Shown here piece by piece: positions 12,231 through 14,136 of a stretch of 64,000 bases of DNA. Made by a program: the position numbers and the translations under genes. Source of the stretch: a virus; IMG/VR virus record IMGVR_UViG_3300037247_000990, positions 3,730 through 67,729 of that record; one strand, written 5' to 3'. How positions within the stretch are numbered: position 1 is the stretch's first letter; each line of letters starts with the position of its first letter. The notes beneath the pieces are model-generated. The model did not search any database. It worked only from the letters and a program-made list of their open reading frames with translations, and had not been told where the DNA came from.

Positions 12231-14136
12231 AGCGATCCGCGTAGGCCGGAGACCTGCCGGGCCGCCGGGCAAGCGCGGGCGGACGACTCGCGGAGTAGCC
12301 GACGCCAACCTCGCTGTGTTCCGCCGTGGCGTGCTGGCGGGCCTGAAGGACCTCAAGGGGCGAGCGTCGCTTGCCGAGATCGCGGACCAGATGTTGCGAG
12401 GTCAGCAGTTCAAGGTCCTCCAGATGTTCGGCGTCGAGGGCACCAGGGTGGTCGGCGACAGCCCGGAGTTCGGGGCCATGCTCAGGGTGTGGCGTCGCGT
12501 CTTCGAGGACTCGGCGATGGAGAACCTGGCCCGCACTCCGAGCCAGTTTCGTCGGCTCGGTCTGTTGAAGGTGACCCCGGAGGAGGCCGAGGCGGCTCTC
12601 GGGTTCAAGTTCGACATGTTCAATCCAGAGTCGGTGGCGTTCATCCAGACCAGCGAGTTCCTCCTGGTCAGGGGTATCAACAGGAGGACCCGCGAGGGCC
12701 TACGCACGATCATGTCGGCGTCGTTCCAGGACGGTATCCCCCCGGCGGCGTCGGCGCGCCGTATCCGCCAGATCGTCGGGCTGACGTCAAAACAGGCAGA
12801 GATGGTCATCAACTTCCGGCGGGCCCTGACTGGAGGGCGCGGTGCCGGTCCGTTGCGTGCGGTTCTAAGCCGGCAGCTCCGAGACCGGCGGTTCGACCCC
12901 ACGGTTCTTCGGGCCATCGACCAGGGCATCGTCCTGACGGCCGCGCAGAGGGAGAAGATGGTTGCCCGCTTCGCCGAACGGCTCCTGGCGTTCCGAGCCA
13001 ACAACATCGCTCGAACCGAGACCATGCGCGCCGCCAGCGCTGGCCAGCAGGCTCTATGGAGCCAGATGGTTCAGCAGCGGATACTCATCCCCCAGGAGAT
13101 GAGGCGGGTCTGGATCGTCACCCGGGACGACCGTCTGTGCCCGATCTGCGAGCCCATCCCCGAACTGAACGCGGGCGGCGTCGGGATGGACGAGCCATTC
13201 AGGACGCCCGCTGGCGATCTCATGCACCCGCCGGCCCATCCTCAATGTTTATCGGGAGACACGCTCGTACTGGCCTCTGGGGTTTCGGCCACGAGCGAAC
13301 GATGGTTTGAAGGCGATCTCGTCGTCATTCGCACGGCCGGAGGCAAGCAACTCAGGTGCACAGCCAATCACCCGATACTGACGGATCGGGGATGGATTGG
13401 CGCTGAGCTCCTTAATGTGGGCGACCAAGTAATCGGCCGCGCCGCCGGTAAGCGGATGCCGCCGCTTATCAATAACGATGGCGACGATATGCCAACCCGC
13501 ATCCATGATATAGCGAAAGCGTTTGGGTGTTCGCGCGGCGTGACGGCCAGAGAAGTGCCAGTGACCGCCCCAGACTTCCACAACGACGGGGTGGGCAGCG
13601 AGGTCGCAATTATACGGGCCAAGAGCCATCTGAGCGACGGTCTCGACGCCGCGAAATCTCAGCATCTTGCGCAGTACCTTTTCGTTCTCGGTTATCAGTG
13701 CCCCCGCGTTCGCGGCTCGCGCCATAGCGGCGCGGCACAATGTCTCGAAGCTCCGCTTTATTCCGAGCGACGCCTTGTGAGCGGCCTTGACTTGATGACG
13801 GCGGGCAGCGGTGCTCATGCGGGACCACTTGAGTTCTTCGGCCTCGCTCTGCCCGCGCAAGGCAACGCCGTATTCGATGAGCCGGGCCGTCAGGGTCTTT
13901 CGGCTAACGCCGAAGACGGGAGCGAGTTGGTTGACCGACTCGCCGGCCAGATATCTCCTGACCAGATCATCGGGGTCGAGCGGGTGCCATTTAGGGGGCA
14001 TGTCTATAATCTCCAAACGGAAAGTGGTTGGTTCGTGTCAAACGGCATCATAACACATAACTGTCGCTGCGACATGGCCCTGCGGAGGGTCGAGACGCTG
14101 GGCCGGCCGATTGTCCCCGGATCGAGGGCGGCGTGA
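12205..14136 (+). CDS. Head morphogenesis protein (MuF/SPP1 gp7-like), intein-containing
   Basis: RANNIARTE, WIVTRDDRLCPIC and PPAHPQ|CRC, with the last motif split by an intein. Confidence 0.9.
   Translation: MLVARPADKAIRVGRRPAGPPGKRGRTTRGVADANLAVFRRGVLAGLKDLKGRASLAEIADQMLRGQQFKVLQMFGVEGTRVVGDSPEFGAMLRVWRRVFEDSAMENLARTPSQFRRLGLLKVTPEEAEAALGFKFDMFNPESVAFIQTSEFLLVRGINRRTREGLRTIMSASFQDGIPPAASARRIRQIVGLTSKQAEMVINFRRALTGGRGAGPLRAVLSRQLRDRRFDPTVLRAIDQGIVLTAAQREKMVARFAERLLAFRANNIARTETMRAASAGQQALWSQMVQQRILIPQEMRRVWIVTRDDRLCPICEPIPELNAGGVGMDEPFRTPAGDLMHPPAHPQCLSGDTLVLASGVSATSERWFEGDLVVIRTAGGKQLRCTANHPILTDRGWIGAELLNVGDQVIGRAAGKRMPPLINNDGDDMPTRIHDIAKAFGCSRGVTAREVPVTAPDFHNDGVGSEVAIIRAKSHLSDGLDAAKSQHLAQYLFVLGYQCPRVRGSRHSGAAQCLEAPLYSERRLVSGLDLMTAGSGAHAGPLEFFGLALPAQGNAVFDEPGRQGLSANAEDGSELVDRLAGQISPDQIIGVERVPFRGHVYNLQTESGWFVSNGIITHNCRCDMALRRVETLGRPIVPGSRAA
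13246..14061 (+). mobile_element. Intein (272 aa) in MuF
   Basis: Starts CLSGDTLV (block A); TANHPILT (block B); HVYNLQT (block F); ends ITHN, followed by the Cys of the host CRC. Confidence 0.93.
13249..14001 (-). CDS. HTH plus DUF559/Vsr-like endonuclease encoded antisense within the intein
   Basis: GGAG SD 9 nt before ATG 14001. HTH (RYLAGESVNQLAPVFGVSRKTL), then ENEKVL...Q...YNCDLA...VVEVWGGHWH...IMDAGWHIV. Confidence 0.8.
   Translation of the reverse strand: MPPKWHPLDPDDLVRRYLAGESVNQLAPVFGVSRKTLTARLIEYGVALRGQSEAEELKWSRMSTAARRHQVKAAHKASLGIKRSFETLCRAAMARAANAGALITENEKVLRKMLRFRGVETVAQMALGPYNCDLAAHPVVVEVWGGHWHFSGRHAARTPKRFRYIMDAGWHIVAIVIDKRRHPLTGGAADYLVAHIKELSANPSPIRQYRVIGCAPELLASGRANDDEIAFKPSFARGRNPRGQYERVSR

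Follow-up and report, generated by a model that had tools for sequence, protein, structure and literature searches.

The 64,000-nucleotide stretch of viral DNA analyzed here (IMG/VR record IMGVR_UViG_3300037247_000990, positions 3,730 to 67,729; hereafter the window) contains a MuF-like head morphogenesis or minor capsid gene that is interrupted by an intein and, on the strand opposite to this intein, a second open reading frame (ORF) of 250 codons (Table 1). The MuF ORF is assigned to head morphogenesis in PHROG (phrog_3517, E = 2.3e-51), and its match to the Pfam family Phage_Mu_F (E = 8.4e-4) stays under the cut-off. Since the close homologues P0048 and P0049 begin at Met8, that is at the ATG at 12205, the true start of the gene probably lies there and not at the GTG at 12184, where the ORF finder places it.

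Table 1. Features of the MuF locus, in window coordinates
Feature	Position	Strand	Remarks
MuF-like head morphogenesis / minor capsid gene with intein	12184..14136	+	uninterrupted 650-codon ORF (650 aa)
N-extein	12205..13245	+	ends ...HPPAHPQ; GC content at third codon positions (GC3) 0.84
Class-1 intein, 272 codons	13246..14061	+	Cys1, block B T39xxH42, block F HVYNL, block G ...THN, then Cys+1
HINT N-terminal lobe, codons 1-66, blocks A and B	13246..13443	+	predicted local distance difference test score (pLDDT) 70-90; sense selection at codons 1-10 and 31-60 in relatives; also the complement of endonuclease residues 187-250 and stop
Sense stretch without predicted fold, codons 129-223	13630..13914	+	pLDDT 23-33; ratio of nonsynonymous to synonymous differences (pN/pS) in the sense frame about 0.8-5.5 in relatives
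HINT C-terminal lobe, codons 224-272, blocks F and G	13915..14061	+	pLDDT 79-93; sense pN/pS 0.00-0.27 in relatives
C-extein CRCDMALRRVETLGRPIVPGSRAA and stop	14062..14136	+	
Antisense gene, 250 aa and TAA; helix-turn-helix (HTH) and Vsr-like (EDxHD-type) putative homing endonuclease	13249..14001	-	P0002
ATG start	13999..14001	-	complement of His252 codon CAT in block F (GHVYNL)
GGAG, Shine-Dalgarno (SD)-like motif	14011..14014	-	9 nt before the ATG; complement of CTCC in Leu256-Gln257 (CTC CAA)
TAA stop	13249..13251	-	complement of intein Leu2 codon TTA
HTH DNA-binding module, residues 4-48	13858..13992	-	
Vsr-like nuclease domain, residues 102-222	13336..13698	-	D133, E142, H149 invariant in 42 homologues

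The intein lies between HPQ and CRC of MuF. Its upstream junction joins ...HPPAHPQ to CLSGDTLV... and its downstream junction joins ...GIITHN to CRCDMAL, with Cys1 (13246-13248) and Cys+1 (14062-14064) as nucleophiles. Residues T39, H42, H271 and N272 are invariant in 7/7 aligned inteins, and likewise blocks B, F and G, and the Pfam family Intein_splicing matches the sense intein with E = 3.7e-8, at 33.8 bits against a cut-off of 35.8. The insertion is exact and in frame, as the intein-less allele P0048 reads HPQCRC without the 272 residues. An initial annotation of this DNA, made from its letters alone, had placed a 272-codon intein at 13246-14061 in the HPxCRC motif, and coordinates, junctions and intein-less allele all agree with it; it had also stated that the centre lacks a LAGLIDADG or HNH motif, and indeed Pfam finds no family of either kind in the sense intein at E<=1 and no domain for the sense centre. 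Within the ORF (12184-14136) GC3 is lower in the intein (0.63-0.66) than in the exteins (0.84), which is consistent with a foreign insert that is constrained on two strands.

A structural model of the sense intein, built with seven sequences, has folded HINT ends (pLDDT 70-93) and a central stretch, codons 129-223, with pLDDT 23-33. Foldseek returned three matches at E<=0.001 for this model, all of them inteins; the target template modelling scores (TMt) to the Mtu RecA and Npu DnaB mini-inteins are 0.57-0.60, and among the best 50 matches intein or Hint splicing domains extend to about rank 44. Judged by its blocks, its HINT fold and its exact insertion the element is a class-1 intein that is predicted to splice, and in the model codons 129-223 may be read as a linker that is removed by splicing. 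Sense residues 81-105 (13486-13560) are modelled with a pLDDT of 75-82, yet they lie opposite the nuclease core and are antisense-selected in relatives; this segment might be a true HINT N4-like element or an artefact of mirrored conservation.

What does the opposite strand encode? The antisense ORF (14001..13249) has the same codon phase as the intein, the sense codon being 253 minus the antisense residue, and the exact register as well as the ATG, GGAG and TAA complements described in the initial annotation were confirmed on the sequence. The protein carries the nuclease signature residues E107, Y130xxD133, VEVWGGHWH at 140-149 and GW at 169-170. Eleven columns are invariant over 42 antisense homologues, including Y130, D133, E142, H149 and Y209, and E107 is conserved in at least 90% of them; the EDxHD residues were tentatively assigned to Vsr by spacing. 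AlphaFold2 models the antisense protein with these 42 homologues at a mean pLDDT of 90.7 and a predicted template modelling score (pTM) of 0.73, only residues 231-250 being low, and the model contains a Vsr-type alpha/beta nuclease fold that could be aligned to Vsr up to residue 222. A profile search of PDB sequences with the same protein matched an HTH protein (5.7e-5), 3hrl (0.004), 3r3p (0.099) and 1cw0 (0.97). The HTH (residues 4-48) and the residues of the Vsr-like nuclease signature named for this ORF are present in P0002, and structure prediction of both frames, which had been suggested as a check, gave a confident antisense protein and, between folded HINT ends, a sense stretch (codons 129-223) that has no predicted fold. 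The antisense product is foldable and conserved, and it belongs to a large family. Some relatives (L007, L009, L010, L012, L004, L005) carry one or two extra N-terminal HTH repeats, so that one to three are found among relatives, and in these the sense intein grows to about 320 codons or more and is still stop-free.

The C-terminal part of the nuclease shares its DNA with the folded N-terminal lobe of the intein. Residues 186-222 are encoded opposite HINT codons 67-31, including block B, and the strand YRVIG with the invariant tyrosine faces (T)ANHPI of block B. The matches to 3r3p and 3hrl reach as far as residue 201, and therefore at least the helix 186-201 (codons 67-52) belongs to the shared core. 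The view of the antisense C-terminal tail as mere read-through of the HINT N-terminal lobe was considered and rejected, because the two free-standing homologues described below keep a similar tail; moreover, the model is confident to residue 230, and codons 11-30 are antisense-favoured in relatives. Codons 31-60, which also lie under the antisense C-terminal region, favour the sense frame in relatives.

Purifying selection changes frame along the intein

In the in-register arrangement sense position 1 is antisense position 3 and vice versa, and the two frames can be compared directly. The pN/pS ratios were calculated according to Nei-Gojobori and summed over 66 pairs of 12 Guernseyvirinae phages, which were picked from hit lists out of about 75 intein-bearing records and whose MuF gene holds an 816-nt homologue of the intein; the ratios thus describe relatives about 30% identical to the window protein and not its own lineage. 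In the N-extein pN/pS is 0.24 for the sense and 1.19 for the antisense frame, in the HINT N-terminal lobe 0.37 and 0.78, and in the centre (codons 70-250) the relation is inverted, with 0.90 for the sense and 0.23 for the antisense frame. In the HINT C-terminal lobe the sense ratio is 0.012 and the antisense ratio undefined, antisense pS being 0. Differences per codon in the centre amount to 0.216, 0.044 and 0.103 at sense positions 1, 2 and 3, and fall mostly on antisense position 3. In sliding windows the sense frame is constrained at codons 1-10, 31-60 and 226-272 and the antisense frame over roughly codons 86-225 (0.04-0.5), with a weaker constraint at 11-30; codons 61-85 show about 0.4-0.7 in both frames. 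The same frame switch is found in a 16-locus alignment of actinophage, enterobacterial and metagenomic members, from which L008, L011 and L013 were omitted as near-duplicates, albeit identity in this alignment is biased to the antisense frame because it was built on the antisense protein. It is hence the antisense frame that purifying selection preserves in the intein centre, and the sense frame that it preserves in splicing lobes and exteins.

The reading frames themselves are kept open on both strands. After exact duplicates of the matched DNA had been dropped, which was done before all counts of loci, stops and codon choice, 137 distinct loci remained, and in 135/137 the antisense ORF is intact and in 135/137 the sense frame is stop-free across the whole antisense match. 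The sense frame stays stop-free because the antisense gene never uses TTA, CTA or TCA. Frequent antisense stops in homologues combined with a conserved sense centre had been named as an outcome that would speak against the bidirectional gene; such stops are not frequent, and the sense centre has a pN/pS of 0.90 in the relatives compared.

How are the signals of the antisense gene accommodated within the splicing motifs? Of the 135 embedded loci, 118 allowed blocks F to G to be identified. Opposite the antisense start a histidine is found in 78/118, encoded by CAT (equivalent to ATG) in 63 and by CAC (equivalent to GTG) in 15, and for the other histidine codons of the same ORFs 900 CAT and 1101 CAC are counted (Fisher p 3.5e-10 for the CAT bias at the start site). 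Similarly, the leucine of block F is CTC, which gives GAG, in 79/113 loci as compared to 28% elsewhere (p 1.3e-19), and the asparagine of block F is AAC in 86/115 as compared to 52% elsewhere (p 8e-7); these three p-values are overstated because the loci are related and not phylogenetically independent. An SD-like 4-mer is found 5-18 nt upstream of the antisense start in 88/118 loci, the start methionine is aligned in 15/16 loci of the 16-locus alignment, and the antisense stop faces the leucine after Cys1 in 84/133 embedded loci with a complete 3' end. On the level of sequence, the antisense ATG and SD are favoured via synonymous codon choice in block F. The initial annotation had suggested testing homologues for conservation of the ORF, the SD and the stop. 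The ORF is preserved and under antisense constraint in the centre, while SD, stop and start histidine are preserved only in the fractions given.

Distribution and mobility of the intein

The antisense protein matches 125 phage records with 27-38% identity (Salmonella 62, Gordonia 15, Pseudomonas 15, Klebsiella 8, Escherichia 6, and others), and an annotated MuF coding sequence faces the match in the first two that were examined, Gordonia phage Fosterous and Salmonella phage PK2; in PK2 the depositors annotated an antisense hypothetical protein at this place. Relatives were found on at least 552 IMG/VR contigs and on 45 bacterial genome contigs, the latter from Pseudomonadota, Actinomycetota, Chloroflexota, Bacteroidota, Cyanobacteria, Gemmatimonadota, candidate phyla and others. 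Profile and sequence searches yielded 44 antisense relatives at 35-51% identity, and at E<=1e-30 the antisense protein retrieves 1,682 clusters of 50% identity. Among sampled sense ORFs Intein_splicing is present in 10/10 and Phage_Mu_F or Phage_min_cap2 in 9/10. Two loci have additional elements in the MuF gene. L003 contains two inteins at different sites of one MuF gene (3941-4753 and about 5396-5974), and antisense to the second intein, too, lies an endonuclease-like ORF (25% identity to P0002, E = 1.6e-14). In L060, a MuF ORF of a Scytonema metagenome-assembled genome (MAG) at 1124-3913 (-), an extra PT-HINT / Hint_2 domain (1.4e-13) lies upstream of the intein with its antisense endonuclease.

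Several comparisons suggest that the intein is mobile. P0048 (371 aa) is 91% identical to the window MuF and has a contiguous HPQCRC, and P0049 (644 aa), which contains the intein, is 80% identical overall. In the metagenome of a second study a 1171-nt contig spans the junction of N-extein and intein (12871-14000) and differs at 87 positions in 1130 nt. Four DNA sequencing runs contain the stretch or a portion of it; in one, possibly the source of this DNA, the whole gene is unchanged, and no joint without the intein was seen in reads or contigs of the examined DNA runs. The MuF gene of a Jerseyvirus is matched by 616 phage records, and only 75 cover at least 80% of it; many matches with 93-96% identity, among them that of Salmonella phage Jersey (KF148055), extend over 1041 nt, the length of the gene once the intein is taken away. 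Furthermore, E. coli phage Snoke (Kagunavirus) and eight Salmonella Jerseyviruses differ by 28-33% in the 720 nt before the insertion site and by 17-21% after it, and the intein of Snoke differs from theirs by only 3.6-4.8%. Other pairs with similar extein distances reach about 21% difference in the intein, and for this reason constraint alone fails to explain the low divergence of the Snoke intein. These sequence comparisons indicate that the intein has moved between phage genera, recently, and that close relatives hold intein-less alleles; the 91% identical intein-less allele and the cross-genus transfer point to active homing.

The two loci of the 137 in which the sense-equivalent frame is not open (L047 and L145) are free-standing endonuclease genes with three and nine complement-frame stops, respectively. 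In L047, a Thermoleophilia MAG, a 231-aa homologue (2501..3196, +) converges on a 348-aa MuF (3180..4226, -) and overlaps its 3' end by 17 nt; this MuF is intein-less and reads HPQCRC. In L145, an IMG/VR contig, the homologue (about 2340-3208, +) overlaps by 14 nt the 3' end of an intein-less MuF ORF (3195..3701, -) that ends with ...HPNCRCCLTFKVD. The endonuclease therefore exists also as a stand-alone gene, in the same orientation to MuF and beside an empty target site. These copies could represent the ancestral or an escaped state, and they fit the proposal, made in a preprint by Gosselin, Arsenault and Gogarten (bioRxiv 10.1101/2025.01.02.630785, version 2025-10-20), that a free-standing endonuclease gene entered the intein.

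Interpretation and alternative explanations

How could an intein whose endonuclease is encoded backwards work? In all likelihood, the locus is a mobile class-1 intein at the conserved site between HPx and CRC of MuF, and its homing endonuclease is a separate in-register antisense gene that combines an HTH with a Vsr-like (EDxHD-type) nuclease. The MuF precursor would be translated through the antisense gene as a disordered linker of about 100-160 residues, which the HINT lobes would splice out of the precursor. The endonuclease would be translated from an antisense transcript and would cut intein-less MuF alleles in co-infecting phages or prophages, and repair would copy the intein together with the endonuclease into the cut allele. 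The bidirectionally coded mobile element postulated in the initial annotation is in this respect backed by fold, conservation, frame-specific selection and distribution. The annotation's further idea, that leftward transcription could uncouple homing from late-gene timing, is speculative.

Several observations weigh against such an element. The openness of the antisense frame, in the window alone, is not improbable. TTA, CTA and TCA together make up 1.16% of the codons of the 22 other long window genes, which gives 2.9 expected per 250 codons and a P(0) of about 0.055, and several ordinary window genes have in-register antisense open runs of 230-548 codons. The openness being unremarkable, the case rests on homology, structure and frame-specific selection. 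As to homology and structure, all Pfam matches of the antisense protein are under the cut-off (MTES_1575 16.4 vs 38.2 bits, HTH_7 19.4 vs 23.8 bits), Foldseek found no match of the antisense model at E<=0.001, the best being the I-Bth0305I catalytic domain (3r3p) at 3.1e-3, and the last acidic position of EDxHD, D167, is D, N or E across the 16 loci. Of the nuclease match that had been expected for the antisense product, the Vsr-type fold is present and the family match falls short. The position opposite the start is not histidine in 40/118 loci, L006 for example beginning at a downstream methionine, and this start is therefore not universal. No promoter signal above chance was found for the antisense gene: one sigma-70-like site lies on the minus strand (14179..14152) where 0.7 are expected by chance, and two terminator-like sites are present on this strand as compared to 1.1 expected; as these numbers are within chance no conclusion is drawn from them. 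No RNA run containing the stretch was listed, as opposed to the four DNA runs, and in the literature no cleavage, splicing or homing experiment was found for any family member. The low divergence of the intein between genera could partly reflect double-coding constraint rather than transfer, and the relatedness of the loci behind the codon-choice tests, the origin of the pN/pS ratios from distant relatives and the antisense bias of the 16-locus identity have to be counted on the same side.

Could the antisense ORF then be the decaying relic of an old endonuclease gene or a by-product, a chance ORF that arises from GC-rich codon usage and is not expressed, within a vertically inherited mini-intein with a long linker? 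The chance-level openness in the window and the missing promoter signal agree with this, and the preprint's main text notes that some VSR-like cases look vertically inherited. Such a relic is nevertheless very unlikely in view of an antisense pN/pS of 0.04-0.3 at codons 86-225 in relatives, the intact ORF in nearly all loci, the 11 invariant columns in 42 sequences, the synonymous bias towards ATG and SD, the confident model and the evidence for recent transfer. With the background codon usage of one Salmonella phage, 6.4 stop-making codons are expected per 250, with a P(0) of 0.0016. It is hardly credible, on the other hand, that the sense centre is a functional in-frame intein domain, of which the antisense conservation would be a mere reflection. 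Motifs of the sense frame, for example VPVxAPDFHGDG, are shared unchanged by 7/7 inteins, and the confidently modelled sense residues 81-105 would suit a sense domain, but these motifs lie opposite the nuclease core VAVEVWGGHWH, where pN/pS is 1-3 for the sense and 0.04-0.34 for the antisense frame, codons 129-223 have neither a predicted fold nor a Pfam domain, and the free-standing homologues carry stops in the sense-equivalent frame. A somewhat larger, though still small, chance may be given to an antisense protein that is functional but not, or not only, in homing, and that serves phage-phage competition, exclusion without gene conversion or regulation of the late operon, with the antisense RNA possibly modulating MuF. 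Selection and fold show function but not which function, and the free-standing copies beside intein-less MuF genes indicate that the protein persists without the intein. However, the nearest characterised family consists of proven homing endonucleases (I-Bth0305I; PMC3239194), the gene is restricted to one site class in MuF, the intein is sporadic among near-identical exteins, and its cross-genus identity is a classic homing signature.

Beyond the mobile intein with its antisense endonuclease, a more far-reaching proposal can be made tentatively, with rather more doubt than confidence. Intein and backwards endonuclease might form an ancient, MuF-specific and obligately bidirectional unit, in which ATG and SD are placed in block F by the choice among synonymous codons, the stop is Leu2 of block A and about 16-37 codons serve folded parts of both proteins, TPNHPI of block B facing the YRVIWG strand, L047 and L145 marking the transition between the free-standing and the intein-borne state. 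If this is true, cultured Jersey-like phages would allow direct tests of which way the transition went and of when the antisense gene is expressed relative to the late operon. The finding also bears on the view of intein origin in which splicing came first and the endonuclease later. The family is large and mostly unannotated, also in widely used isolates, being present in Salmonella Jersey-like phages and E. coli Kagunavirus, and a gene is therefore overlooked there by routine annotation. With about 750 bp of true two-strand coding and a mosaic frame constraint, the arrangement is a clean natural case for the evolution of overlapping genes, and the cultured members make expression, cleavage and homing experimentally tractable.

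Relation to known systems

The initial annotation had considered this architecture undescribed, which is wrong. The preprint (10.1101/2025.01.02.630785) reports inteins with an 'anti-sense VSR-like HEN' among 63 non-canonical actinophage inteins, with minor capsid proteins among the hosts and an HHpred link to 3R3P/EDxHD. The window intein resembles those in being a full intein with an antisense endonuclease ORF, an unstructured in-frame centre and a minor capsid host. It differs in its source, a marine-sediment phage contig of about 60% GC and not an actinophage isolate, and in the extent of its antisense ORF, which starts in block F, ends opposite codon 2 and also lies over blocks A and B. 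Under the MuF genes of 15 Gordonia phage records the antisense protein has matches of 34-38%, which may belong to the clusters of the preprint; the names Gordonia, Fosterous and Vivi2 are absent from its main text. In the sections of the preprint that were consulted no frame-specific pN/pS, no test of codon choice at ATG and SD, no breadth beyond actinophages and no free-standing copies by MuF were seen, and its supplements may bear on these points. No literature on this arrangement in enterobacterial phages was found in a search that lay outside subscription journals and supplements.

Endonucleases encoded opposite to an intein frame are older than the Vsr-like examples, as the preprint cites anti-sense LAGLIDADG endonucleases in inteins of dnaX and of a SpoVR-like protein (Gorbalenya 1998; Gogarten 2002). 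These have in common with the window that the endonuclease gene runs opposite to the intein frame; nuclease family and host genes are other ones. The EDxHD homing endonuclease family was named with the characterisation of I-Bth0305I (PDB 3R3P; Taylor et al. 2011, PMC3239194), whose gene, unlike that of the window endonuclease, lies within a recA group I intron and does not run opposite a coding frame; the two proteins share about 12-13% identity. Fractured genes (Dassa et al. 2009, PMC2677866), which are described mainly for phages, contain split inteins, the two halves of which are separated by a free-standing Vsr-like endonuclease gene. The host gene is present there as two ORFs whose products are rejoined by trans-splicing, and 6-69 bp are shared by the endonuclease ORF and the split-intein ORF downstream of it. 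The Vsr-like superfamily, the association with an intein and the status of the endonuclease as a separate gene are shared with the window, in which, by contrast, the host ORF (12184..14136) is continuous, the intein contiguous and the endonuclease antisense and fully overlapped.

A further relative in terms of layout is the ShiLan element, an HNH endonuclease 'hidden' out of frame within the DNA methylase of a phage (Arsenault et al. 2025, PMC11855218). It resembles the window locus in that the endonuclease is encoded by an alternate frame within a host gene that is itself open, and differs in that the HNH gene is on the same strand in a shifted frame and lacks a splicing domain. A look-alike of ShiLan is found in the window itself. 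The methylase ORF 2409-4115 (+; N6_N4_Mtase, 2.9e-44) is open across a featureless centre, and within it, in another frame of the same strand, a 223-aa ORF at 2902-3573 (+) matches HNH_5 (2.1e-12), so that the window looks to hold two nested endonuclease genes of different kinds. The layout of the MuF intein is that of a member of a recently described kind, to which the frame switch in selection, the codon choice at the antisense start, the breadth of distribution and the free-standing copies add detail.

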